In this document: piece by piece, positions 2,540-35,612 of the stretch
Numbering within the stretch: the stretch's first letter is position 1
How the letters are laid out: every line of letters begins with the position of its first letter
Assembly: GCA_017500825.1 (NCBI GenBank)
Contig: JAFVYB010000024.1
Location: 17,193-81,192 of the forward strand
Direction: 5' to 3'
Length of the DNA: 64,000 nucleotides
Source: Myxococcaceae bacterium
GTDB taxonomy: Bacteria > Myxococcota > Myxococcia > Myxococcales > UBA5297
Notes under the pieces: model-generated
Database searches by the model: none
Told to the model about the DNA's origin: nothing
What the model saw: the letters and a program-made list of their open reading frames with translations, nothing else
Program-made: the position numbers and the translations under genes

Positions 2540-4984
2540 TCACTGTTCGGCGACGAATGACTTGAGGACGTTGAGCGACTGGCCGTCAGTGACGAACGTG
2601 ATCGCGCCGTCGCGGTCGGTGCGGTGGATGGCGCTTCCCTGGGATTCGTAGCGGGCGACGACTTCGGCGTGCGGAAAACCAAAGCGGTTGTTGCGCCCAC
2701 AGGAAAAGACGACGTGGCCGGGCGAGATGGCGGCGACGAATTCCGGCGTCGAGCTCGTCCTGCTGCCGTGGTGCGGCGCCTTGAGCACGGTCGCGCGCAG
2801 ATCTCGGCCTGCGGAGAGCAACGCCTGTTCGCCCAGCGCCTCGATGTCGCCGGTGAAGAGAAACGAGATCTCTCCCAAGCTCAGGCGCGCGCTCAGGCTG
2901 GCGTCGTTTTCGCCAAGATGCGGGGCATTGGGAGGCGGGTGCAGGATCGCGACCTCGACGCCGCTCAGCGCTCGTCGGTCACCGGCCGCCAGCTCGACGA
3001 TTTGGGCCTTGGGCGCCGCGTCGACGAGGGCGCGAGAAAGTCCGCCGGGCACCTGGGTTTGTCCGCGGGCGATCCAGATTTCGCGCGGGCGCAGCGCTGC
3101 CGCCGACTCGATGAGCCCGTTCGCGTGATCCGGGTGCGGGTGAGAGAGCATGGCGATGTCGAGCCGTTCGACGCCCAACGCGCGCAACGCCGGGACAAGG
3201 ACGCGTTCGCCGACACGCCAGCGCCCCTCGGGATCACCGCCGCCATCGATCAGCATCGTCTGCCCGTCGGGGAAGCGAACCAGCGCCGCGTCGCCCTGGC
3301 CGATGTCGAAGAAGGTCACGCGCAGCGAGCGATCCATGTGGCGCGCCATCCACGGCAGGCCCGCGAAGACGACGAGACCCAAGGCGCCGATGCAGGCCGA
3401 CAACATCCCGGCGCGTCGCGAACGCGGCCAGAGCCAGAGCGCGAGGAGGCAGGCGTAGGCGGCGGCGACCACAGCGCCCGTGGGCGGCGACACGTCGAGG
3501 CTGGCCCAGGGCAGCGAAGCGAAAAGGCGCGTGATCGCGAGAAGCAGCGCGGCCAACGGATCGCAGAGGCACAGGAGGAGCGCGGCGATCGGTTCGCAAA
3601 GGCTCATCGCGAGCGCGGCGCAGGCGGAGAGGACGGTCAGGGCACTGCCCAGCGGCAGGGCGACGAGGTTGGCGAGCACGGCGACGATCGATGTCTGTCC
3701 AAAGGCCCGGGCCACGAGCGGCGCGGTGGCCAAAGAGGCGATCGCGGTCGCGGCCAGAGTCGCGCACAGCCAGCGGGCACAGCGCAAAAGGCGCGAACGT
3801 TCGTCCGACTCGTTGAGAGAGAGGCGGCGCGAGAGCCACTCGTTCAGAGGGCGGGTCCCCAGCATCAGCGAGGCCACCGCGACAAAGGAGAGCTGAAAGG
3901 AGATCGAGCGCAGCGCCGCGGGATCGCGCGCGAGAATGACGAGGGCGGCCAGGCAGAGCGCGCTCGGAGCGTCGTCGTCTCGTCCCAGGACGCGCGCCAA
4001 AAAGAGGGCGCTGACCATCACCCCGGAACGGACAGCCGGCACCTCGGCGCCGCTGAGAAAGACGTAGAGCCAACACATCGGCACCGTGAGCAGCGCGGCG
4101 AGGCGCGGGACATCGCAGCGCAGCGTGAGCGCGGAGAAGCGGGTGAGAAGCCAGCGCAACAGCCGGCAGAGGCCCAGCGCCACCACGCCCACGTGCAGGC
4201 CGGAAACGCTGAGCAGATGGGCGAGTCCGGTGTCGCGAAAGTCGGACAGCGTCTCTTCGGGCAGCGCGGCGCGATCTCCCAGGCCGAGGGTGCGGACGAG
4301 TCGCGCGGCGTTTCCTTCATCGATGGCGCGCGCGCACAACTCGGCGAATCGCTCGCGGTAGTCGCGCTGAAACCGGGCCGACGGCGGCGGAAACCCAATG
4401 GCGCTCCACTGACCGCGCACAGGCCTGGCCAAAAAAGCGATGCCCTGGGCCTGATCCTCGCCGCGTCGATCGCGCTGTCCCGGGTTGGTCGGGCCGCGCG
4501 GCTTTCGCAATCGCACCCGGGCCCGCACAGAGTCGCCGACATAGAGCGACGGCGCGCCGTCGAGGCTGAGCCAGACGCCAAAACGCGCGTCGAAAAACGC
4601 CTCTCCACGAATGACGCGATGGACCCGCAGATGGACCCGCGTCCGATTTTCGCGCGGCGGCGACACGGCAACGACGCGCCCTTCGACGACTTCTTCGGCG
4701 GCCAAATCCGCGGGCAACTCGATCGCCGCCTGACGCTGCGAAAGCCCAACGCCCCAAAGCGCCGAGGCCAGAGAGACGAGCGCAAACGACAAAATCGGCG
4801 CGCGGCGCGAACCGGCCAAAGCCATCGTCGACAGCAACAGCGCGACAACGAGCGCGACGCCCGGCGCCTGTGGCGACAGCGGACCGATCCAGACGCCAAG
4901 TCCAAAGAGCAGCGCCGCGAGCACAAGGGGACGGCCCGCCAGATCCCGCTCAAGCGACGATGACTTCGAAGCGCGCGCCCGCAT
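2540..4984 (-). CDS. comEC: DNA internalization competence protein ComEC/Rec2 (membrane channel + C-terminal MBL-fold domain)
   Basis: Long polytopic membrane region. C-terminal metallo-beta-lactamase signature LSHPHPDHANGL ... APHHGS typical of ComEC. Confidence 0.85.
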   Translation of the reverse strand: MRARASKSSSLERDLAGRPLVLAALLFGLGVWIGPLSPQAPGVALVVALLLSTMALAGSRRAPILSFALVSLASALWGVGLSQRQAAIELPADLAAEEVVEGRVVAVSPPRENRTRVHLRVHRVIRGEAFFDARFGVWLSLDGAPSLYVGDSVRARVRLRKPRGPTNPGQRDRRGEDQAQGIAFLARPVRGQWSAIGFPPPSARFQRDYRERFAELCARAIDEGNAARLVRTLGLGDRAALPEETLSDFRDTGLAHLLSVSGLHVGVVALGLCRLLRWLLTRFSALTLRCDVPRLAALLTVPMCWLYVFLSGAEVPAVRSGVMVSALFLARVLGRDDDAPSALCLAALVILARDPAALRSISFQLSFVAVASLMLGTRPLNEWLSRRLSLNESDERSRLLRCARWLCATLAATAIASLATAPLVARAFGQTSIVAVLANLVALPLGSALTVLSACAALAMSLCEPIAALLLCLCDPLAALLLAITRLFASLPWASLDVSPPTGAVVAAAYACLLALWLWPRSRRAGMLSACIGALGLVVFAGLPWMARHMDRSLRVTFFDIGQGDAALVRFPDGQTMLIDGGGDPEGRWRVGERVLVPALRALGVERLDIAMLSHPHPDHANGLIESAAALRPREIWIARGQTQVPGGLSRALVDAAPKAQIVELAAGDRRALSGVEVAILHPPPNAPHLGENDASLSARLSLGEISFLFTGDIEALGEQALLSAGRDLRATVLKAPHHGSRTSSTPEFVAAISPGHVVFSCGRNNRFGFPHAEVVARYESQGSAIHRTDRDGAITFVTDGQSLNVLKSFVAEQ

Positions 4985-5106: not shown

Positions 5107-8100
5107 TCAGCCGGCAAGCAGCGATTCGTCGGCAGTGCCCCGTTCGCTCGATTTTGACGCGCGTCGCGGTTTGGCCGAGGCCCCGAGATCCGCGTCGATG
5201 GCGGCGACGGTCGACTTGCCGTTCGACTCACCCAGCGTCTCCGCCAACCGCTCGTGCGCCACCGACATGAAGAGCTTGATGCGGTTGATCTGGTTCGATT
5301 CGCAGGCGCCCGGGTCGTAGTCGATGGCGGCGATGTTGGCGTTGGGGCGGACGCGCTTGATCTCCTTGATCACGCCCTTGCCGGTGATGTGGTTCGGCAG
5401 ACAGCCAAAGGGCTGGAGGCAGAGGACGTTGGGCGCGCCGTGGTCGATGAGCTCCAACATGTCGGCGGTCAGCAGCCAGCCTTCGCCCGCCTGAAGTCCG
5501 GTGGTGATGACCTGCGCCGCCTTGCGCTCCAGATCGTCGATGTGCGCCACCGGCATGTAGCGCGTGCCCTCCAGCGCCTCGCGCAGCGCGTCGCGAAGCC
5601 CTTCCAAAACGCCCACGCTGAGCCGGTTGCTCAACTGCGCCGCCACGCTGCCGCCGTGATGCCTGCCCTGATAGACGGCGTCGCTCAGGCAGTAGAGCAG
5701 GAAGTCGTTGAAGTCGGTGACCACTGCCTCGCCGCCCTCCTGCTCGATGACGCGCACCGCGTTGTTGTTCGCGTCCGGGTGATACTTGAGCAGGATCTCG
5801 CCGACGACGCCGACGCGCGGCCTGATTTTGCCGTCGCGCGGGATGGCCTCGAAGTCGCGCACCATCTGTCCGAGGTGCCGCCGAAAGACATCGATGCGCG
5901 TTCCGGGCGACTCGACGTTGCTGCGCGCGCGCCTGAGCCAGAGCGCGGTCAAAGCGTCGGTCTCGCCTTTGCGCACCTCGTAGGGCCGCGTGGCGTTGGA
6001 CAGGCGCATCAGCATGTCGCCGTAGAGGCCCGCGAGCAGAAGGCGTTCGGCGAAGCGCAGCGTGACCTCAAAGCCGGGCTGTTGGTCGCCGCGGCCGCTG
6101 TTGAGCGAGAGCACCGGCACCTGGGGATAGCCCGCCTCGACGAGGGCCTTGCGCAGGAGCGGGATGTAATTCGTCGCCCGGCACGGACCGCACGTCTGCG
6201 TGAGCAGCATCGCCGTCGTGTCCGGGTCGTAATCGCCGCGCGTGAGCGCCTGCAGCTGTTGACCGATGACGACGAGCGCCGGGTAGCAGGCGTCGTTGTG
6301 AACGTATTTGAGCCCCAGCTCGATCGCAGCCCGGTCCACCTTGGGCAGGATGTCGAAGCGGTAGCCCGAAGCGCGGAAGGCCCCCTCGTAGAGGTCGAAG
6401 TGCAGCGGCATCATCTGCGGGGCGAGGATGGTGTGGGTGCGCCTCATGCGAGTGACGAAGGGGACGCGGCCGCGCGTGTTCGCCAGATACGTCGCCGGCA
6501 TCGACTCGCCTGTCCCCGCGCGAGAGCCCGCTTCCCGGTCTTCGCCGTCCTCGACCTGAACGCCGCCGAGCTGTCCCCCGCGCACAGCCGCCATCAGCGA
6601 TCGGATGCGAATGCGCGCCGGCCCCAGGTTGCCGCCCTCGTCGATCTTGATCAGCGTGTGCAGCTTGCCCGCGCCATCGAGGATGCGATGCGCCTCGTCT
6701 GCCGTCACCGCGTCCACGCCGCAGCCAAACGAAGTCAGCTGGACGAAATCCACATTCGGCAGCCGACCGACCAACGCCGCCGTCCGATAGAGGCGCGCGT
6801 GGTAGGTCCACTGGTTGACGATATCGAGCTCGGGCATGTCTGCCTGCAGATGGGCGATCGAGTCCTCGCTGATCAGCGCCGCGCCCAGCGAGACGACGAG
6901 CTCGTCGAGGCCGTGATTGACGAGCGGATCGACGTGGTAGGGCCGCCCGGCGAAGACGATGCCGTGGCCGCGTTTTTCCCTCACCCAGGCCAACGCGCGC
7001 TCACCCTCGCGGCGCAGTTCGGCCCGATAGCGTTCCAGTTCGCGGCGCGCCTTCTCGATGGCCGAGAGGAGTTCACGCTCCGGGATCTGGAAGAGCGGCG
7101 AGAGGATCCTGGCGAGCGACTTGGCGTGCGCCGGATTCACGCAAGGCGAGAAGTAGCGAACGCCCTCCTCCGCGAGCGCCTCGGTGTTGAGGCGGATGAC
7201 CTCGGGGTAGCCGCTGACGACCGGGCAGTTGAAGCAGTCGCGCGCGCTCGGGTGCTCCTTCGTCTCGCGCGGCACGGTCGGATAAAAAATCGTCTTCACG
7301 CCGCGCCTGAGCAGGTCGGCGATGTGTCCGTGGGCCAGCTTGGCCGGGAAGCAGACGGTCTGTGAGGGCATCGACGACAGCCCCAAATCGTAGAGCGCCT
7401 TGCTCGACGGCGACGAGAGCGTCACGCGAAAGCCGAGCGCGTCAAAGAGCGTGAACCAGAAGGGGAAGCTCTCGAACTGATTGAGCACGCGCGGAATGCC
7501 GATCTCGCCGCGCGGCGCGCGTTCCAGAGGCCGAGGCTCGTAGTCGAACAGCCGCTTGTTCTTCCACGCGTAGAGGTTGGGGGGGCGGTTCGTCAGTTCG
7601 AGCTTTTTGCCCGCGCCCTTCTCGCAGCGGTTGCCGGAGATGAAGCGCCGCCCGTCCGAGAAGCGGTTGATCGTCAGCAGGCAGCGGTTGCCACACCCCT
7701 GACAGCGCTGGGTTTTGGAGGTGGCGCTCAGCGCGCGCAGCTCGTCGAGCGAAAGCAGGCGGCTGGCGGGCAGGTCGCTCCCTTTGGTGTTCGCGAGCCG
7801 GACCTCGTCGCGGGCGAGCAGCGCCGCGCCAAAAGCCCCCATCAGGCCGGAGATCTCCGGACGAATCAGCGGGCGCCCGAGCAGCCACTCCATGGCGCAC
7901 AGAAGCGCGTCGTTGGCGAAGGCGCCGCCCTGGACGATGACGCGGTTGCCGAGTTCCTCCGGGTCGCGGATGCGCAGCACTTTGTAGAGGGCGTTGCGCG
8001 CGACCGAGTAGCAGAGCCCCGCCGCGATATCGCCGATGGCCGCGCCTTCCTTCTGCGCCTGCTTGACCTTCGAATTCATGAAGACGGTGCAGCGCGAACC

Positions 8101-9543
8101 GAGATCGGTCGGCCGCCGCGAGACGAGCGCGCTCTCGACAAAGTCGCGCAGGGGCAGGCCCAGGCTCTCGGCGAAGGTCTCCAAAAATGCGCCGCAACCG
8201 GCCGAGCAGGCTTCGTTGAGAGCGATGCCGACGATGCGTCGATCGCGCACCTTCAGGCACTTCATGTCCTGGCCGCCGATGTCGAGGACGTAGGTCGCGT
8301 CCGGAACGAGCTCACAGGCCGCGCGGCAGTGGGCCACAGTCTCCACCTCGGCCAAGTCGATGCCAAAGGCGACCTGCGCGAGGTCGGCGCCATAGCCGGT
8401 GGCGGCGGCTCGGCGAATGACGACGCCCTCGGGGAGTTTCTCCAGCAACGCCGCGAGCGAACGGCGAATCACCTCCAGCGGCGCCCCGCGATTGCGCTCA
8501 TACCAACTGTGCAACAGCTCACCGGCGTCGCTCAGGAGCACCGCCTTGACCGTGGTCGAGCCGATGTCGATGCCGAGGAAGGCCTCGCCGCGATAGCCCG
8601 CGAGATCGCGCTTTTTGGCCAGCTGGCGAGCGTGGCGCTCCTCAAACGAAGCGCGCTGCGTCTCGGTCTCAAAAAAGGGCGGCAGTGGCGGCGCTTCGAC
8701 AGGCGTCTCCCGGGCGCTCTGGGCGGCGCGGCGCGCCAAATCTTCCAGTGAGTGAACCTCTGCCCCAGCCTCGATGGCCGCGCCCAACGCGACGGTGAAC
8801 TGCGCGTCCGGCGGACAGACGACATCCTCGTCAGAGAGTCCCAAAGTCTCGACGAAACGCTTTTTCAGCTCGGAGAGGAAGTGCAGCGGCCCGCCGAGAA
8901 AGGCGATCTTGCCCTTGAGCGAAATGCCGCAGGCCAGTCCGCCAATCGTCTGGTCGACGACCGCCTGAAAAATCGAAGCGGCGATGTCCTCGCGCCGGGC
9001 GCCCTCGTTGATCAGCGGCACGATGTCGGTCTTGGCGAAGACGCCGCAGCGAGAGGCGATGGGGTAGAGCGTCGTGTGTCCCTCTGCCAGCGCGTTGAGC
9101 CCAGGCGCGTCCGTCTGCAAGAGCGCCGCCATCTGGTCGATGAAGGCGCCCGTCCCGCCCGCGCACGTCTCGTTCATGCGCAGCTCCATGCCCTGGCTCA
9201 GACAGAGGATTTTGGCGTCCTCGCCGCCGAGCTCGATCGCCACGTCCGTCTGGGGCGCGACGGCCATCAGCGCCCGCGCCGCCGCCATCACCTCCTGGAG
9301 AAACGGCAGCCCCAACACGTCGGAAATCGACAGCGCGCCGGAACCAGTGATCGCCCCGCGCACCTCCAGCCCCGGGTGACGCTGCGACAGATCCGCCAGG
9401 ATCGCCGCGAGCGTCTGACGAACGGCCGCGCCATGCCGCTGGTAGATGGCGTCGATGATCTCGCCGTCGGGCGAGCGCAGGACTGCCTTGGCAGTGGTCG
9501 AACCGATGTCGAGGCCCAGCGTGCAAGTTGTGGCGCGCTTCAT
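5107..9543 (-). CDS. acyl-CoA dehydratase activase (BadF/BadG/BcrA/BcrD ATPase) x2 fused to 2-hydroxyacyl-CoA dehydratase-like domain (YjiL/YjiM-type fusion), 1478 aa
   Basis: Two ASKHA activase modules (LGLDIGSTTAKAVL... and LGIDIGSTTVKAVLL...), a Cys-rich C-x-x-C region and an HgdB-like C-terminal half. The RBS is adjacent to a palindrome upstream. Confidence 0.8.
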   Translation of the reverse strand: MKRATTCTLGLDIGSTTAKAVLRSPDGEIIDAIYQRHGAAVRQTLAAILADLSQRHPGLEVRGAITGSGALSISDVLGLPFLQEVMAAARALMAVAPQTDVAIELGGEDAKILCLSQGMELRMNETCAGGTGAFIDQMAALLQTDAPGLNALAEGHTTLYPIASRCGVFAKTDIVPLINEGARREDIAASIFQAVVDQTIGGLACGISLKGKIAFLGGPLHFLSELKKRFVETLGLSDEDVVCPPDAQFTVALGAAIEAGAEVHSLEDLARRAAQSARETPVEAPPLPPFFETETQRASFEERHARQLAKKRDLAGYRGEAFLGIDIGSTTVKAVLLSDAGELLHSWYERNRGAPLEVIRRSLAALLEKLPEGVVIRRAAATGYGADLAQVAFGIDLAEVETVAHCRAACELVPDATYVLDIGGQDMKCLKVRDRRIVGIALNEACSAGCGAFLETFAESLGLPLRDFVESALVSRRPTDLGSRCTVFMNSKVKQAQKEGAAIGDIAAGLCYSVARNALYKVLRIRDPEELGNRVIVQGGAFANDALLCAMEWLLGRPLIRPEISGLMGAFGAALLARDEVRLANTKGSDLPASRLLSLDELRALSATSKTQRCQGCGNRCLLTINRFSDGRRFISGNRCEKGAGKKLELTNRPPNLYAWKNKRLFDYEPRPLERAPRGEIGIPRVLNQFESFPFWFTLFDALGFRVTLSSPSSKALYDLGLSSMPSQTVCFPAKLAHGHIADLLRRGVKTIFYPTVPRETKEHPSARDCFNCPVVSGYPEVIRLNTEALAEEGVRYFSPCVNPAHAKSLARILSPLFQIPERELLSAIEKARRELERYRAELRREGERALAWVREKRGHGIVFAGRPYHVDPLVNHGLDELVVSLGAALISEDSIAHLQADMPELDIVNQWTYHARLYRTAALVGRLPNVDFVQLTSFGCGVDAVTADEAHRILDGAGKLHTLIKIDEGGNLGPARIRIRSLMAAVRGGQLGGVQVEDGEDREAGSRAGTGESMPATYLANTRGRVPFVTRMRRTHTILAPQMMPLHFDLYEGAFRASGYRFDILPKVDRAAIELGLKYVHNDACYPALVVIGQQLQALTRGDYDPDTTAMLLTQTCGPCRATNYIPLLRKALVEAGYPQVPVLSLNSGRGDQQPGFEVTLRFAERLLLAGLYGDMLMRLSNATRPYEVRKGETDALTALWLRRARSNVESPGTRIDVFRRHLGQMVRDFEAIPRDGKIRPRVGVVGEILLKYHPDANNNAVRVIEQEGGEAVVTDFNDFLLYCLSDAVYQGRHHGGSVAAQLSNRLSVGVLEGLRDALREALEGTRYMPVAHIDDLERKAAQVITTGLQAGEGWLLTADMLELIDHGAPNVLCLQPFGCLPNHITGKGVIKEIKRVRPNANIAAIDYDPGACESNQINRIKLFMSVAHERLAETLGESNGKSTVAAIDADLGASAKPRRASKSSERGTADESLLAG

Positions 9544-9564
9544 GCAGATGCTCCTTCGTCAAAT

Positions 9565-9578
9565 TAGACAACTGTCTA
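9565..9578. promoter_or_regulatory. inverted repeat TAGACA-AC-TGTCTA, candidate TetR-type operator in the 5' leader of the activase-fusion gene
   Basis: Perfect 6-bp inverted arms 22 bp upstream of the activase ATG. A TetR gene lies immediately upstream on the same strand. The GTCTA half-site recurs in the (C)CGTCTAAAAAC boxes at 9641, 9666, 9776 and 10567. Confidence 0.4.
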
Positions 9579-9806
9579 GTAATCCCCTGAAACGGGGCGC
9601 CTAGATCGGCGAGAGCAGGCAAAAAGCAAGCGGGAAAATGTCTCTAAAACAGCGCGATTTGGACGACCGTATAAAAACACGGCAACACACGCTTCCCTCT
9701 GAGAGACGGGCCAACACTGGCGGTCAGAGCTCCGGCAGGCTCCAGGCACAGGCGAGGCGGCAATAACTGGACGATCGTCTAAAAACTTCGAACGCGCGCC
9801 GAACGC

Positions 9807-10550
9807 TCACTTGCCGTGAGGGCGTGGATCGTCGGCGAAGAGGCCAAATCGATCCGCCAGCTCGCTGACACCGCTGGAAAAGCGCTTGATGACCGACAAC
9901 GGCCCCGAACCGCGCGGGCGAAGGCCATTGAGGAGAATGCCCAGCCTGGCGCGGGCCACCTTTGCCGAGTTGAGCTCGTCGCGCGCCTCAATGCCGAGGA
10001 AGTTGCCCTCCGGATCGAGGCAGTCGAAGAGCTCTCGCGACCAGAACATGGGCAAAAACAGGGTGCTGCCGAGCGTGACCATGATCTGAACGGGCGAGAG
10101 GTCGTCGCGCAGAATCCCGGCCTTCTGGCTGTCGCGCACGAGCTCGAAGATCACTTTCAGGTGGCGCGGAAAATTGTTCGAGACCATCTCCGCGACGAGA
10201 GGCGTCCCCCGCACGCCGTCCTTGAAGAGAGCGCGCGCCAGTTCACGGTTCGAGTCGATGTAGTCGACGGCCTGATCGAGCACGGTCAAAAGCCGCTCCA
10301 GCGGGTTGTCCACATCCTGAACGCCCGTGACGATGTGGCGGAAAAACTCGTCGTAGGCCTGGGTCAAGAGCTGGCGCAGGAAGTTCTCCTTGGTGCGGAA
10401 GTGGTAGGTGAACATGCCGAGGTTCACGCCCGCGCGATCGCAGATCTGGCGCACGCTGATGCCCGTGATGCCCTTCTCCTTGAGCAGCTCGATGCCCGCG
10501 TCGAGGAGCAGGCGGTCGCAGTTTTTCGATGGTCTCACCATGGCTTGCAC
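9807..10550 (-). CDS. TetR/AcrR family transcriptional regulator
   Basis: N-terminal HTH LLDAGIELLKEKGITGISVRQICDRAGVNLGMFTYHF is a classic TetR_N. Helical C-terminal ligand domain. Confidence 0.8.
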   Translation of the reverse strand: MQAMVRPSKNCDRLLLDAGIELLKEKGITGISVRQICDRAGVNLGMFTYHFRTKENFLRQLLTQAYDEFFRHIVTGVQDVDNPLERLLTVLDQAVDYIDSNRELARALFKDGVRGTPLVAEMVSNNFPRHLKVIFELVRDSQKAGILRDDLSPVQIMVTLGSTLFLPMFWSRELFDCLDPEGNFLGIEARDELNSAKVARARLGILLNGLRPRGSGPLSVIKRFSSGVSELADRFGLFADDPRPHGK

Positions 10551-10825
10551 ACCTTTACTGTAATGCCGTCTAAAAACTCGTCTCCGGCCAGAAGCGGCGG
10601 GCTTCTAAGGGGGATCGTCGAACCAAGGCAAGGCGCGAGGCCGAGGGCGCAACAGCACCCTGTCACCGCCTTCCAACTCTCTCGGTCAGCGCCCCGCGCG
10701 CGATCCTTCGCCCCACAGGCCAATGGCGTGATCGCCTTCCCTTCGCAGGCAGCGCGAACGAGATTTTCCCCGCATCCGGCCAGCGACAACGCGGCCATCT
10801 CCACGAGTTTCCAGAGGAAATCGAC

Positions 10826-11993
10826 CATGAGCTTCCGCCCCTCCGCGCTTCACCCCATCCGCCGCGCCGTTCGTCGCGCCGCGTTCCTCTGCCTTCCTAT
10901 CGCCCTGAGCCTGTCCTTCGACGCCTGGGCAGCCGCCGACGGCAAGCTCGGACCACTCATCGCGGCCAACGCCACACCGCTGTCGACAGGCGCGGAACAG
11001 CTCCTCGACACCTGCCCCGCCATCGCCAAGTGGCGCTTCCGAGCGAACACCGCAGGTCACAACCTCGACGGCTTTGCCAGCCGCTGCCCACAGAGCGCGC
11101 TCGTCCTGCAGCCGACATTCGAGAGCTTTGGCGCGCGCCGACTCGACGAAGATCCCGCCCAGGCCGCCCTCCAGGCGTGGAGTGAAGCGGCGACATTCCA
11201 GACTCTGCTCTCCACACGCGACGATCGCCTCTGGCTCGAAGGCCCGGACGCGACCTCGCTCCCCAGTTGGCGCGAAACCGGCGCGCCGAGTTGGCTCTCC
11301 ACGTTTTGGAGCGCGCTCGCCAGCATGGCGCGTGAGAGCGGCGTGGGACTCCTCGTCCATCTCGATGGCCTGACGCCCGAAGGCGACCTCGACAGCCTCG
11401 TCACCGCGCTGGAGTCCACAGGCTGCCGCTATGGCTTCACGCGTTCGCTCTCGATCGACACCCTTTGCGTCGGCGCAACGCATCCGGCCCTCGACTTCGA
11501 GTCGCTCCTCCCCCGCCTGCCAGCAGAGCGCCCTGTCGTCCTCTCCCACGTCGAGCACGCCCACCTGCCCGCCACCGGACTCAACGACTGCGCGAGCGAC
11601 GACTACGTCACCTGGCTCACCTGGTTCGACGCCCGCCTGCGCCAAACCCCACGCGTTCTGGGGGCCGCGCTCCACGACTTTGGCAGCGCCAGCGCTTCAG
11701 CTCTCGACGCCTGCGTCAGCGCCATCGTCACCGCGCCCGTCCCGCCATCAGACTTCGCCCTGCCCGACTGCGCCGACGAGTCGGGGGAAGGCTCTGGAGG
11801 AGAGAGTTCCGACAACGAATCGCCCGACGCCCCATCCAACACCGGCTCGTCCATGGGCGCCTCCGGCACCTTCCGCGATACCGAGGACAGCGGCTGCGGC
11901 GTCCCCGGTTCGAGCGCGCCCCTCCATCCCCTGTTCGCCCTCGCGGCAATCCTCGGTCTCTGCCGACGAGGCGGCCAATGCGCCCGACGCTGA
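10826..11993 (+). CDS. secreted hypothetical protein with MYXO-CTERM-like C-terminal sorting tail
   Basis: ATG at 10826 preceded by GAGGAA. Signal peptide (RRAVRRAAFLCLPIALSLS). C-terminus GCGVPGSSAPLHPLFALAAILGLCRRGGQCARR (Gly/Cys, hydrophobic, Arg-rich) as in MYXO-CTERM. The upstream part of the ORF-track ORF (9816-10825) is antisense to tetR and rejected. Confidence 0.5.
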
Positions 11994-12027
11994 TCGAGTC
12001 ACGCCAGACGCCCGCGCCCTTCCGTCC

Positions 12028-13050
12028 TCAGCGCCGCCAACGCCTGAGGCCCGACAACAACGCCAGCGCCATCCAGCCCACCATTCCCACAGGTCCCGCG
12101 TTGCCCGCGCCCGCGCATCCACCGGCTGGAACGATGTCCTCACCTTCATCCGTGACTTCTTCCGCGCTCCCGCCCTGACAGGCCAAACGACTGTCAGCGG
12201 TAATGAAGACCCCCTCAGCCCCATCGAGCAGGCAAGGCGCCGCGGTCACAGGAATGGCGAACGCCTCCGAGGTGAGGGTGTAGTCGCGCACGTATTTGCC
12301 AGCGGGCGTGTAGAGCTTGCCCTTGACCGTCAGCGTGGCCTCGACCTCGCCGACCTTTGTCGGGCTCAGCGTCGTCAGGTTGAAGCTGTTCGTGCCGCGA
12401 TAGTCCTGCGACTTGAAGTCGACGCCCGCGCCCTTGAACTTGATGAACTTGCGGACGTTATCGGCCTCGATGCTCCAACCCGGCTCCGGCGCCGAGTCAT
12501 AGATGGTCAGCGGCAGCGTCTGTCCGGCCACGAGCCCGCCGTAATGCAGTCCCTCGTCGAGCACGCGCGCCGCCTCGATGACCGGCGGAATTTCAATCGG
12601 CTCTGAGACGCTCTCGACGCGCTCGCCTTCCTCGGCGCAGGCCCCGTTCTTGTCGAGCGACGCGCAGCAGCTGCCCGTGACGCGGACGCGATAGACAGCG
12701 CCGGGTTTGAGCGCGGCCGTCAGTTGCCGGGTCTGGCTGCCCACTTCCTGAAAGCTGGCACTCCCATCGAGCCGAAGCCCCGTCGCCGGATGGGGATCGA
12801 GCACGCCCGCGGCCGGATCAAAGTCGTAATCCAGCGTCGATCCAACAGCGCCCCCCGGACAGTTGAGCGACAGCGCGACCGGCACCTCGACAAAGGCCAT
12901 GGGGCGCCCGTTCTCGGTGGTCATCTCAATGGTGCCGTTCCAGGGGCCCATCGCGGCGCTGGCGTTGATCGATGTCTCGGCGGCAAAAGCCTGAGGCGCG
13001 ACATTCAAGGACAGGGCAAACACGGCGGCAGTCAGCGAATAGCGGGACAT
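12028..13050 (-). CDS. secreted hypothetical protein with MYXO-CTERM-like C-terminal tail
   Basis: Signal peptide MSRYSLTAAVFALSLNVAPQAFA. C-terminus GGCAGAGNAGPVGMVGWMALALLSGLRRWRR. Confidence 0.5.
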   Translation of the reverse strand: MSRYSLTAAVFALSLNVAPQAFAAETSINASAAMGPWNGTIEMTTENGRPMAFVEVPVALSLNCPGGAVGSTLDYDFDPAAGVLDPHPATGLRLDGSASFQEVGSQTRQLTAALKPGAVYRVRVTGSCCASLDKNGACAEEGERVESVSEPIEIPPVIEAARVLDEGLHYGGLVAGQTLPLTIYDSAPEPGWSIEADNVRKFIKFKGAGVDFKSQDYRGTNSFNLTTLSPTKVGEVEATLTVKGKLYTPAGKYVRDYTLTSEAFAIPVTAAPCLLDGAEGVFITADSRLACQGGSAEEVTDEGEDIVPAGGCAGAGNAGPVGMVGWMALALLSGLRRWRR

Positions 13051-13330
13051 GGGGTCTCCTCGTCAAAAAGGCGAAGCGCGGACACATTCAAAAAAAGCGC
13101 GATCCAAAGGCGCCGCTTGATGTGGCCAGACGCGGTGAATCTCAACCTTTGATTGCGACACATTTCATTTCGCCGAATAATTTTTAACCCCCAACAATCA
13201 TTCAACCACCCATTCCCCCACCAACCGCTCCATCCAACAACCAACAAAACACCCCGGACCAACAACCAATAAAAAGCCAGACAAACCAACATTCCATCAA
13301 ACAGCTCGATTTAATTTTTAAACAAAATTA

Positions 13331-13367
13331 AAAATAAAAAAAGCGCCCGAGAATCAATCCGGGCGCC
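13331..13367 (-). terminator. Rho-independent terminator downstream of cdnL
   Basis: On the minus strand: GGGCGCCCGG-attgattct-CGGGCGC followed by TTTTTTTATTTTTAATTTT. Located 30 nt after the cdnL stop. Confidence 0.7.
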
Positions 13368-34235: not shown

Positions 34236-35612
34236 TCACGGCGCCGCAGGTGTTCCAGGCGTCTTGGCCGCAGCGTTCGCCGACTCTTCGCCTGCGCTCG
34301 CTGGCGACGCCGCCACCAGTCGCGCCTCCGCCAAAGAGATCGTCGCCGCCAGATGCCGTCCCGAAGGCCAGCTCGACCACTCGTCGGGCAGGATTCGATC
34401 GAGGAGCACGCGCCGATCCAAACGGATGATCAGCCGAACCTGCGGAGCGATGTCGGCACGCGCGCGATCGATCCAGATCTCGATGGCGCCGGACGTGTCC
34501 GCCGGAATGACCGCGCGCGAGGTGTAGCCATCCGACGAAAGCGCGCACCACGGACGCGGCGAAGCGAACGCGCAAGTTTCGACACCGCTGGCCGAGGGCG
34601 AAGTGGCTTCCCGGCGACGCGTGACACTGAGCGAGAGCCCGCGCGCCCCCTCTGGCTCCTCCTCGACGAGCTCGATCTCGTAGTCGGGCACACCGGCGCT
34701 GAAATCGATCTGGCGGCGGCTCGTCAGACCATCGACGCGGGAAGCGGTCACTCCCAGGCGGAACAGGCCCTCGGCGCGGATGGGCAGGCGAACCTGGAGA
34801 TCGTCGACGCGTTCCATGGCGCCCTTCACGGAGGCGACGTTCATTTGCTCGATTTCATTTTTAGACGGCCGTGCAGAAACGTTGTCGGACACGGCCTCCC
34901 GATCGTTTTTAGACGGCTGTGCAGGAATGTTTTCGGGCGAGGCCAACAGCTCGAAATCAATCCGCGCTCCCGGCTCGCTCTGCGCCGCGCAGATCACCGA
35001 GTCACCGACGCGCGGCAGGGGCATCAGGCCCTCGTTCTGGTAGGGCGCGACCGGATGTTCGACGCGGCAGCTCAGCTCAAGCGCGGGCGGGTTGAGGCAG
35101 CTCTGGGCGCGATTCTGGCGCACGGCAAAGCGCACCTCGCCCTGATGTCGCGGCACGGCGACGAGGGCGGCGGGATAGGTCGCCCCTGGCGGAAACGGGC
35201 AACCCGACGCGGGCAGGCGCTCCTCGACGGCGACGTGGAGCGTGTCCTTCTCCCTGGTGATCCGCTCAAAGGCGATGGCGTGCCCGATCGATGGCCGCTC
35301 TCCGGAAAAGGCGACGAGGATCATCTCGCGCGAAAAATCGATGGTCGGGACCGGGATCGAGGCGGGCCACAGCGAGAGCCACTCAGCGCGCGTGCGAATG
35401 ACATGAAAGCCGCGTTTGCGCGCGCCCGGATGATTGGAAAAAGCGCGAGAGGGCCGCACGGCGACGGCCGGCAGACTCAGACGGCGCGACGACGCATCGA
35501 CGACGCGAATCTGATTGGGCGCTGGACAGCCCGTGACGAGAAACGCGGCGAGGGCGAGCGACAGGGGGATCGCGCCCAGTCTGCGACGCCGAAAAAAAGG
35601 AGGGTGGGTCAT
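34236..35612 (-). CDS. hypothetical lipoprotein containing an internal 15-aa tandem repeat
   Basis: MTHPPFFRRRRLGAIPLSLALAAFLVTGC is a lipoprotein signal peptide. Internal AQPSKNDREAVSDNV / ARPSKNEIEQMNVAS repeat is encoded by a tandem 45-bp DNA repeat of lower GC. Confidence 0.5.
   Translation of the reverse strand: MTHPPFFRRRRLGAIPLSLALAAFLVTGCPAPNQIRVVDASSRRLSLPAVAVRPSRAFSNHPGARKRGFHVIRTRAEWLSLWPASIPVPTIDFSREMILVAFSGERPSIGHAIAFERITREKDTLHVAVEERLPASGCPFPPGATYPAALVAVPRHQGEVRFAVRQNRAQSCLNPPALELSCRVEHPVAPYQNEGLMPLPRVGDSVICAAQSEPGARIDFELLASPENIPAQPSKNDREAVSDNVSARPSKNEIEQMNVASVKGAMERVDDLQVRLPIRAEGLFRLGVTASRVDGLTSRRQIDFSAGVPDYEIELVEEEPEGARGLSLSVTRRREATSPSASGVETCAFASPRPWCALSSDGYTSRAVIPADTSGAIEIWIDRARADIAPQVRLIIRLDRRVLLDRILPDEWSSWPSGRHLAATISLAEARLVAASPASAGEESANAAAKTPGTPAAP
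34857..34945. repeat. tandem ~45-bp direct repeat (x2) inside the lipoprotein gene carrying the box GCCGTCTAAAAA(C)
   Basis: tttttagacggccgtgcagaaacgttgtcggacacggcc / tttttagacggctgtgcaggaatgttttcgggcgaggcc. Its reverse complement matches the 13-mer at 10566 exactly. Confidence 0.7.

Follow-up and report, generated by a model that had tools for sequence, protein, structure and literature searches.

Within the 64,000-nucleotide stretch of Myxococcaceae contig JAFVYB010000024.1 analysed here at its full length (the window), a gene for a TetR-family regulator (tetR, 9807-10541, minus strand) lies directly upstream of a giant gene encoding a protein of 1478 amino acids (aa) (5107-9543, minus strand), and short, mutually related boxes recur around tetR. 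This arrangement raises the question of which protein reads the boxes and which genes it controls. A sequence-only reading of the window had proposed an autoregulated TetR operator set controlling a giant enzyme of unknown substrate. This proposal gained strong comparative support from orthologous loci and from distant homologues, while the structure assigned to the site had to be revised. On the basis of these sequence comparisons, the boxes quite probably serve as operators for the TetR-family repressor whose gene lies at 9807-10541, and this repressor would shut off its own gene together with the plsA/ger-like gene that follows.

The co-directional layout of the two genes was found as described, with positions reproduced within 1-2 bases, and the spacer between them measures 263 base pairs (bp). 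The start of tetR was placed at the ATG at 10541, as in the orthologues, giving the N-terminus MVRPSKN, and not at the GTG at 10550.

Palindromic sites around tetR

The boxes of the sequence-only reading (GTCTAAAAAC) are the right halves of a 22-24 bp palindrome, TTTTT-RGAC-N4-GTCY-AAAAA. With a repeat finder they extend to 19 nucleotides (nt) (TGGACGACCGTATAAAAAC, TGGACGATCGTCTAAAAAC and TGTAATGCCGTCTAAAAAC), and on the gene strand the extended boxes read TTTTTAGAC-GATC-GTCCA and TTTTTATAC-GGTC-GTCCA, which is the same 5-N4-5 inverted repeat as the TAGAC-AGTT-GTCTA at the start codon of the giant gene; therefore, each box corresponds to half a palindrome with its A-rich flank. Four palindromic sites were thereby located around tetR, all given on the minus strand. 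The predicted operator O_R (10554-10577) lies in the tetR leader; its core is TAGAC-GGCA-TTACA (10559-10572), and the ribosome-binding site AAAGGTG comes next. An extra copy, O_X (9763-9786), stands just past the tetR stop codon with the core TAGAC-GATC-GTCCA at 9768-9781 (TGGACGATCGTCTA). The two others are predicted operators of the plsA-like gene, the promoter-distal O_D (9655-9678; core TATAC-GGTC-GTCCA at 9660-9673, TGGACGACCGTATA) and the promoter-proximal O_P (9560-9583; core TAGAC-AGTT-GTCTA at 9565-9578), the latter being a perfect 5-N4-5 palindrome. The inverted repeat previously noticed near the ATG of the giant gene was thus recovered as TAGACAACTGTCTA at 9565-9578, 21 nt before that ATG, and is the sole match in the window. 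It had been read as TAGACA-N2-TGTCTA; the palindrome is present but its inner bases are not palindromic in the orthologues, and TAGAC-N4-GTCTA is preferred for this reason.

The motif is strongly enriched. The 11-mer CGTCTAAAAAC occurs seven times in the window with at most one mismatch, compared with 0.32 expected, a count reached by none of 100 shuffles, and GTCTAAAA has four exact copies in 64 kb (9777, 10568, 34859 and 34907) against 0.27 expected. A weight matrix was built from 14 orthologous sites only, the window being excluded, and its top positions in the window were O_X (35.6 bits, the best of the window), O_R (27.1 bits) and two positions inside a lipoprotein gene, 34857-34880 (22.9 bits) and 34905-34928 (21.3 bits), followed by O_P (19.7 bits) and O_D (18.8 bits). 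An AT-rich segment at 13314-13337 also scored high (23.0 bits) and, having no GAC/GTC core, was judged spurious. Six matrix sites of at least 18.8 bits were counted in the window, whereas 300 local shuffles yielded 0.07 on average and never more than 2.

The boxes are real and enriched; they belong to 5-N4-5 palindromes with T/A-rich flanks and are not GTCTA half-site boxes as first described, and one of the five drops out. In the box at 9640-9650 (GTCTCTAAAAC, near 9641) only the GAGACATTTTC part is conserved while the GTTTTA part is not, so it is not a site of the 5-N4-5 type. The repeat finder also paired 9773-9795 with 10512-10534 (78% complementary), which is probably due to chance.

Conservation in orthologous Myxococcales loci

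Close relatives of this TetR were found only in uncultured Myxococcales, in which tetR is followed by the 1478-aa gene in four independent contig families (L001/L002, L003, L004/L005 and L006/L007/L012). Scans for further close orthologues returned, in genomes, only L012 (the same as L006) and one 51% identical relative and, in metagenomes, a single 51% relative. Compared with the window, the four families have TetR proteins 74-83% identical and enzymes 80-92% identical, and the lineages are well diverged: where a tetR amino acid is identical, the codon is identical as well in just 59-67% of cases. The spacers between tetR and the enzyme gene, of 263, 374, 247, 308 and 304 bp, cannot be aligned beyond conserved blocks.

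The absence of the boxes from orthologous loci, which was to count against the sequence-only reading, was checked, and boxes are present in every orthologous locus. The positions of O_R, O_D and O_P in the window are matched in L001, L003, L004 and L006. O_R is kept in 5/5 loci as TTTTTRGAC-N4-TTACARTAAAGGTGT just before the tetR start codon, the O_D position likewise in all five as TTTTTAGAC-N4-GTCCAA, and O_P in all five as TTTTTRGAC-N4-GTCTAATTT, followed by the GAAGGAG ribosome-binding site and the ATG. The centres of O_D and O_P are 95-96 bp apart in each of the five loci. The extra copies behave differently: one lies right after the tetR stop codon in the window, one about 70 nt after it in L001 and one 31 bp upstream of the distal site in L006, while L003 and L004 have none, so that O_X is a lineage-specific duplication.

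The same comparison bears on the view that the boxes do not bind a protein at all and are terminator T-runs, UP-like AT tracts or locally spread remnants of small repeats, their recurrence then resulting from local duplication. Some features of the locus do resemble this: the box at 9776 comes after a weak terminator-like hairpin and its GTTTTT, local duplication creates extra copies that carry their flanks along, as the common surroundings of the two L001 copies show, and a tandem-repeated copy lies inside a coding region. On the other hand, conservation at fixed positions across the five diverged loci extends to the palindromic cores and is not limited to the T-runs. An intrinsic terminator after tetR was considered and rejected, the hairpin being weak and unconserved and the terminator scan giving fewer calls than shuffled sequence (1 vs 1.6); moreover, L003 and L004 carry no site past the tetR stop codon, so the box found there in the window is not a conserved terminator. 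An RNA element in the 263-bp spacer was likewise rejected, Rfam giving no match at E <= 1. An origin of the boxes independent of any binding protein is thus considered very improbable.

The motif tracks the TetR subfamily

Distant homologues of the window TetR (about 30-63% identical, from Burkholderiales, Elusimicrobia and others) were represented by 78 genome loci and an independent set of 64 metagenome loci, and the 150 bp upstream of each tetR start were searched with the pattern T[AG][GT][AT]C-N4-G[AT][AC][CT]A. The palindrome was found upstream of tetR in 64 of the 78 genome loci, with 6 matches in 761 kb elsewhere, and in 43/64 metagenome loci, with 3 matches elsewhere in 225 kb. These distant palindromes are of the TATAC-N4-GTATA type, with the consensus ATAAYTATAC-N4-GTATARTTAT, and lie about 22-50 nt before the tetR start codon, mostly at about 22 nt, O_R being their counterpart in the window; for a Burkholderiales member of the subfamily, in Noviherbaspirillum sp. 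ST 5-3 (L045), the candidate site is ATTATTAGTC-N4-GTATAATAAT. The motif also persists where the enzyme is missing, since the loci of the 51% identical TetR (L008, L013 and L100), with no enzyme gene following, still have ATTTGGAC-ATCA-TTCCAAAAAT in the shared upstream region. Conversely, no such palindrome was found near the gene of enzyme homologues without this TetR (L094, L096, L097 and L099). The presence of the motif upstream of distant homologues ties it to the TetR protein, and the reading as an autoregulated operator is for this reason well supported.

Upstream of tetR, the palindrome is doubled or tripled at a spacing of exactly 16 bp in many distant members (L023, L034, L039, L044, L050, L063, L088, L089, L109, L114, L146, L148, L149, L151 and L164). 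The left flank of these spaced palindromes is often TATAAT, so the operator may overlap a -10 element there, in which case the leaders would be very short. Distant members of the subfamily precede operons of HlyD, ABC ATPase and ABC-2 permease genes, some with an outer-membrane factor. Within the window, including the vicinity of the lipoprotein gene, no second member of this TetR subfamily was found.

The recognition-helix motif AGVNLGMF-x-YHF is invariant across the subfamily, and an N-terminal RPSxN arm is also common to its members. The variable recognition-helix residue preceding the invariant Tyr (residue 45 in the window protein) is H with TATAC in 166 of 202 half-sites, and T or S with TAGAC, TGGAC or TAGTC in the Myxococcales clade and one further lineage. 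This covariation hints that residue 45 is a specificity determinant, few independent lineages standing behind it.

Sites of the CRP/FNR type are also 5-N4-5 inverted repeats (TTGAT-N4-ATCAA for FNR). A different regulator, such as an oxygen or redox sensor of the CRP/FNR family, might therefore bind the palindromes with the TetR being merely a neighbour, as the GAC-N4-GTC geometry resembles such sites and the enzyme family is active in anoxic conditions only (PMC13159169), so that a sensor of this kind would suit an oxygen-sensitive enzyme. This possibility does not agree with the distribution of the motif, since 107/142 loci from unrelated phyla have it directly in front of a homologue of this TetR, most distant loci encoding efflux operons and not the enzyme, while enzyme homologues without this TetR are also without the motif. 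In addition, the half-site bases change along with the recognition-helix residue of the TetR. Consequently, binding by another regulator is judged very unlikely, and the TetR encoded at the locus is retained as the protein that would read the palindromes.

The TetR protein

The protein of 244 aa encoded at 9807-10541 is a bona fide TetR-family member. Its N-terminal helix-turn-helix matches Pfam PF00440 (TetR_N) with E = 6.4e-11 over residues 15-60, and a database protein 100% identical to it (P0001) has the same length. An AlphaFold2 model with a mean pLDDT (predicted local distance difference test score) of 81.5 contains 13 helical segments according to DSSP and displays the all-helical TetR fold with an extra C-terminal helix at 216-232; the top 50 PDB matches to this model in Foldseek are all TetR-family regulators. 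The best solved structure in a PDB sequence search was 3dew, an uncharacterised Geobacter protein (E = 1.3e-15), and no NCBIfam family exceeded its cut-off, the best, RefZ, being far below its own. The PDB sequence and NCBIfam searches thus gave no characterised relative. Cys8 and Cys34 of the protein are conserved. A ligand class could not be assigned from structure, as Foldseek gives generic TetR folds, the acyl-CoA binders FadR, KstR2 and AibR included, among which none stands out.

The 1478-aa enzyme

The BadF/BcrAD-activase domains ascribed to the giant fusion enzyme were confirmed, and its family is not unknown, the protein matching PlsA/Ger, a family of oxygen-sensitive enzymes. Ger, a glycerol ester reductase known from Thermotoga maritima and Desulfatibacillum alkenivorans, is a modified form of the anaerobic plasmalogen synthase PlsA; it replaces the ester bond at sn-1 of membrane lipids by an ether bond, and does so in anoxic conditions only (PMC13159169; PMC8788747). 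In Pfam the window protein shows two BcrAD_BadFG domains (E = 7.6e-57) and DUF2229 (E = 7e-75), followed by a dehydratase-like C-terminal part. These three domains form the BBD core, which is kept in the Ger homologues of all confirmed saturated-alkyl-ether strains (PMC13159169). The BBD architecture and the length of 1400-1500 aa are shared with PlsA/PlsR (Clostridium perfringens; as a single gene in Enterococcus, Lactococcus and Bifidobacterium) and with Ger (Tmari_0479, SHJ90043), and validated single-gene plsA genes measure 4248-4920 bp (PMC12838417). HGD-D segments go undetected in the C-terminal part of the window protein (no PF06050 at E up to 10), where only a weak second DUF2229 match was obtained (E = 0.003); many variations have been reported in this part of the protein, with its short HGD-D and DUF2229 segments (PMC13159169).

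The window protein shows about 50% identity, over 96-97% of its length, to single-gene homologues of 1400-1500 aa from Clostridia, Paenibacillus, Desulfovibrio, Klebsiella indica and others. With Listeria monocytogenes WP_014600632.1 the identity is 47.8% at a coverage of 97%; Listeria has been named among the bacteria with active pls orthologues (PMC9702350). The homology to the Listeria protein exceeds the level used to define homologues (E <= 1e-50, coverage >= 30%; PMC13159169), as measured against homologues and not against Tmari_0479 itself. From the BBD architecture and this full-length homology, the 1478-aa protein probably belongs to the PlsA/Ger family; the assignment, made against homologues and with HGD-D undetected, is probable and not proven. 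The enzyme may be of either type, PlsA (producing vinyl ethers) or Ger (producing saturated alkyl ethers).

Ger/PlsA homologues are reported to be common in deltaproteobacteria, and myxobacteria are known for other ether-lipid routes, through elbB-E and agps (PMC13159169). No TetR gene adjoins the enzyme gene in Listeria, in Klebsiella indica or next to a 60% identical homologue (P0038, at L094/L095). In Paenibacillus aceti (L096) a cardiolipin-synthase-like gene was noticed near the plsA homologue (1378-2835 and 8236-8835 of that locus were noted).

Promoter-like elements and predicted mode of action

Between O_D and O_P, non-operator blocks that are invariant or nearly so in the five loci (9594-9645, minus strand) represent a candidate promoter of the plsA-like gene. 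They comprise AGAGACATTTTC at 9634-9645, CTTGCTTTTTG at 9620-9630 and CTCGCCGATCTAGGCGCCCC at about 9594-9613, the last having the cross-locus form CTCGCCGATCTAGGCGCCC. The candidate -35 would be TTGCTT (9624-9629), used with the TAGG-containing block. O_P is located between these promoter-like blocks and the ribosome-binding site GAAGGAG (9551-9557), which lies 7 nt before the ATG at 9543 and is kept in 4/5 loci. For tetR itself, conservation points to a candidate promoter at 10602-10631 (minus strand), with TTGCCT at 10626-10631, an 18-nt spacer and TAGAAG at 10602-10607; in the window as in L001, L003 and L004, TTGCCY and TAnnAG stand 17-18 nt apart, a pattern missing from L006. A sigma-54 promoter in the conserved CTTGCT block was considered and rejected, as by eye the spacing to any GG element is unsuitable.

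In the predicted mechanism, each 22-24 bp palindrome would fit one TetR dimer with one helix-turn-helix per TAGAC half-site, and the conserved N-terminal RPSxN arm may read the T/A-rich flanks. O_R, being in the tetR leader, would give autoregulation, whereas O_P, from its position between the promoter-like blocks and the ribosome-binding site, would block initiation or early elongation of the enzyme gene. A supporting role may fall to O_D, which is placed some 30 bp before the candidate -35, since its distance from O_P is conserved at 95 bp (nine turns). By analogy with TetR-family repressors generally, the ligand-free repressor would sit on these sites and block both transcripts, and a small-molecule or lipid ligand in the C-terminal domain would release it.

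Several observations weigh against this reading of the locus. Two of them concern the sites, as the right half of O_R (TTACA) fits GTCTA poorly and O_P and O_D of the window score only 19-20 bits compared with 30-43 bits for the orthologous sites. Others concern their position relative to the transcription start, since a sigma-70 consensus scan of the region called no promoter, so that the -35/-10 assignments are inferred only, and since in the window and L003 the candidate -10 would be followed by O_R only after more than 20 nt. For the enzyme, Pfam HGD-D is undetected in the C-terminal part and the comparison with PlsA/Ger was made with homologues and not with an experimentally validated PlsA or Ger. 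Finally, the operator-like copies inside the lipoprotein gene are unaccounted for by the TetR-operator model.

Operator-like repeats in a lipoprotein gene

The reappearance of the 13-mer inside a lipoprotein gene, already pointed out in the sequence-only reading, is real and takes place within a 48-nt tandem repeat. The gene (34236-35612, minus strand) encodes a protein with the lipobox LVTGC and a PrcB_C domain, and by repeat comparison contains two 48-nt units (34841-34936), each with an operator-like core, read on the plus strand as TTTTTAGAC-GGCC-GTGCA at 34857-34880 and TTTTTAGAC-GGCT-GTGCA at 34905-34928. The repeat is an in-frame insertion, absent from orthologues of 50-59% identity and present as three units in an 80% identical orthologue (L092, 3670-3813), and its GC content is 50% against 68% in the rest of the gene, or 50% against 79% at third codon positions. 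Each unit encodes (Q/R)(P/L)SKN with rare codons. The TetR N-terminus MVRPSKN (AGACCATCGAAAAAC, 10527-10541) and the repeat RPSKN (CGGCCGTCTAAAAAT, 34857-34917) share a pentapeptide and about 10/12 nt, probably by chance.

These copies are either functional extra sites or a neutral insertion derived from operator-like DNA. The neutral explanation, in which they are leftovers of an in-frame insertion and tandem expansion in a tolerant linker that the TetR does not use, with the operator resemblance coming from chance or from descent from operator DNA, is given slightly more credence than doubt. It is consistent with the absence of the insertion from the 50-59% identical orthologues and with the half-site GTGCA, on the left, being off consensus. 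Furthermore, a maximum score as high as that of each core was reached by 1.0% and 2.3% of shuffled windows respectively, and the window and L092 are close (80% of the codons for identical amino acids are identical), and the units are not independent. This explanation is opposed by the pattern of substitutions: TG-N-AC-N-GC-N-GTCTAAAAA is invariant in 5/5 units while the other 28 nt of each unit vary, the core region has changed only in its N4 spacer, although the changes there alter amino acids (Q to R, P to L), and no unit has lost the rare codons TCT (7% of Ser) and AAA (27% of Lys). The 13-mer is moreover identical to that of the tetR leader site. Such an invariant core looks like a constraint on the DNA.

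It is a speculative idea, which we regard as rather unlikely, that the lipoprotein cores are functional TetR sites; separately, and with the same reserve, the TetR subfamily might sense lipids or membrane state. If the former were true, a lineage-specific array of two to three copies, enlarged through tandem duplication without loss of the reading frame, would couple an envelope lipoprotein with the ether-lipid switch, be it through roadblock, through titration or through an internal promoter, and the regulon of the repressor would be growing through operators embedded in protein-coding DNA. If the latter were true, it would explain the control of ABC-2 exporters elsewhere and of an ether-lipid enzyme here.

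Neighbouring genes

The divergent neighbour of tetR (10827-11993, plus strand) encodes a secreted protein (about 388 aa) with a signal-peptide-like N-terminus from the ATG at 10827 and without any Pfam or NCBIfam match. It is syntenic with tetR: by tblastn the divergent neighbours are matched by this protein with 52-54% identity in L001 and L003 and 33-35% in L008 and L013, the pairing with tetR thus being kept even beside the 51% identical TetR relative. In L008 and L013 the palindrome is nearer to the secreted-protein gene than to tetR, and this gene may for that reason be a further target of the TetR.

Directly downstream of the enzyme gene, a ComEC-type competence gene (2540-4984, minus strand) is found. 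The tetR-leader box ATGCCGTCTAAA (10563-10574) resembles in 11/12 positions the Neisseria DNA uptake sequence, ATGCCGTCTGAA. A Neisseria-type uptake sequence, which is a short motif densely scattered over a genome and has a conserved CTG core, was rejected, as GTCTAAAA has only four exact copies in 64 kb, at two loci, and its core is CTA and not CTG; with the motif at two loci only, the resemblance beside ComEC was judged a coincidence. In L006/L012 a Cas3-like helicase gene (11647-12717) comes after the enzyme gene. The segment 12001-20000 of the window has a GC content of 0.54-0.60 against about 0.67, with AT-rich intergenic runs, and may be foreign DNA.

Comparison with known systems

The locus resembles the classical TetR-tetO, QacR-IR1, AcrR and FadR-type modules in its TetR_N helix-turn-helix and all-helical ligand domain, in the AT-rich palindromes beside the regulator's own gene and its target, with predicted autoregulation plus control of the adjacent gene, and, among distant members, in the several operators per locus with tandem sites 16 bp apart. 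It differs from them in having three to four sites per locus, one of which is upstream of the promoter-like blocks. For the subfamily members preceding HlyD, ABC ATPase and ABC-2 permease genes, the same layout is known from CecR (YbiH) and ybhGFSR of Escherichia coli. CecR was nevertheless rejected as prototype of the subfamily, being only weakly similar to the window TetR (28% identity over 54 residues around the helix-turn-helix) and giving no significant BLASTP match with the L045 protein (E = 2.2), and an operator of the CecR type was rejected as well, the cecR upstream region having a different palindrome, TCTTAATCAATCATTTGATTAAGA.

In Enterococcus faecalis the TetR/AcrR gene EF1326 is upstream of the pls gene EF1327, an arrangement also seen in other facultative anaerobes, and the role suggested for this TetR is that of limiting plasmalogen synthesis to suitable (anoxic) conditions (PMC9702350). 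The pairing of a TetR with pls is therefore known, and the window is similar in having its TetR-family gene directly upstream of a single-gene plsA homologue; no operator was reported for EF1326, which was compared here by description only. In Paenibacillus aceti (L096), the TetR gene is downstream of the plsA homologue and overlaps its 3' end, and the protein, 24% identical over the helix-turn-helix, is not of the same subfamily. Recruitment of TetR regulators to pls genes has therefore seemingly taken place more than once.

No earlier description of the operator TAKAC-N4-GTMTA, with its T/A flanks, could be found. The predicted switch is of an ordinary kind and involves no new principle, though it was not previously described for this repressor family. 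A predicted operator consensus is thereby provided for a widespread, uncharacterised TetR subfamily of Burkholderiales, Elusimicrobia and others, placed there before HlyD/ABC-2 exporters, and the promoter-operator cassette is potentially usable as a biosensor.

As for ether lipids, carrying a Ger gene does not always mean that they are made, and regulation by physiological factors has been suggested (PMC13159169), the sole regulator of PlsA/Ger ether-lipid synthesis mentioned so far being the uncharacterised Enterococcus TetR gene (PMC9702350). Taken together, the locus offers, for a Myxococcales homologue of PlsA/Ger, a concrete candidate pair of regulator and operator whose site of 22-24 bp is defined and, as the regulated gene probably belongs to the PlsA/Ger family, the switch would gate anaerobic ether-lipid synthesis in this lineage.

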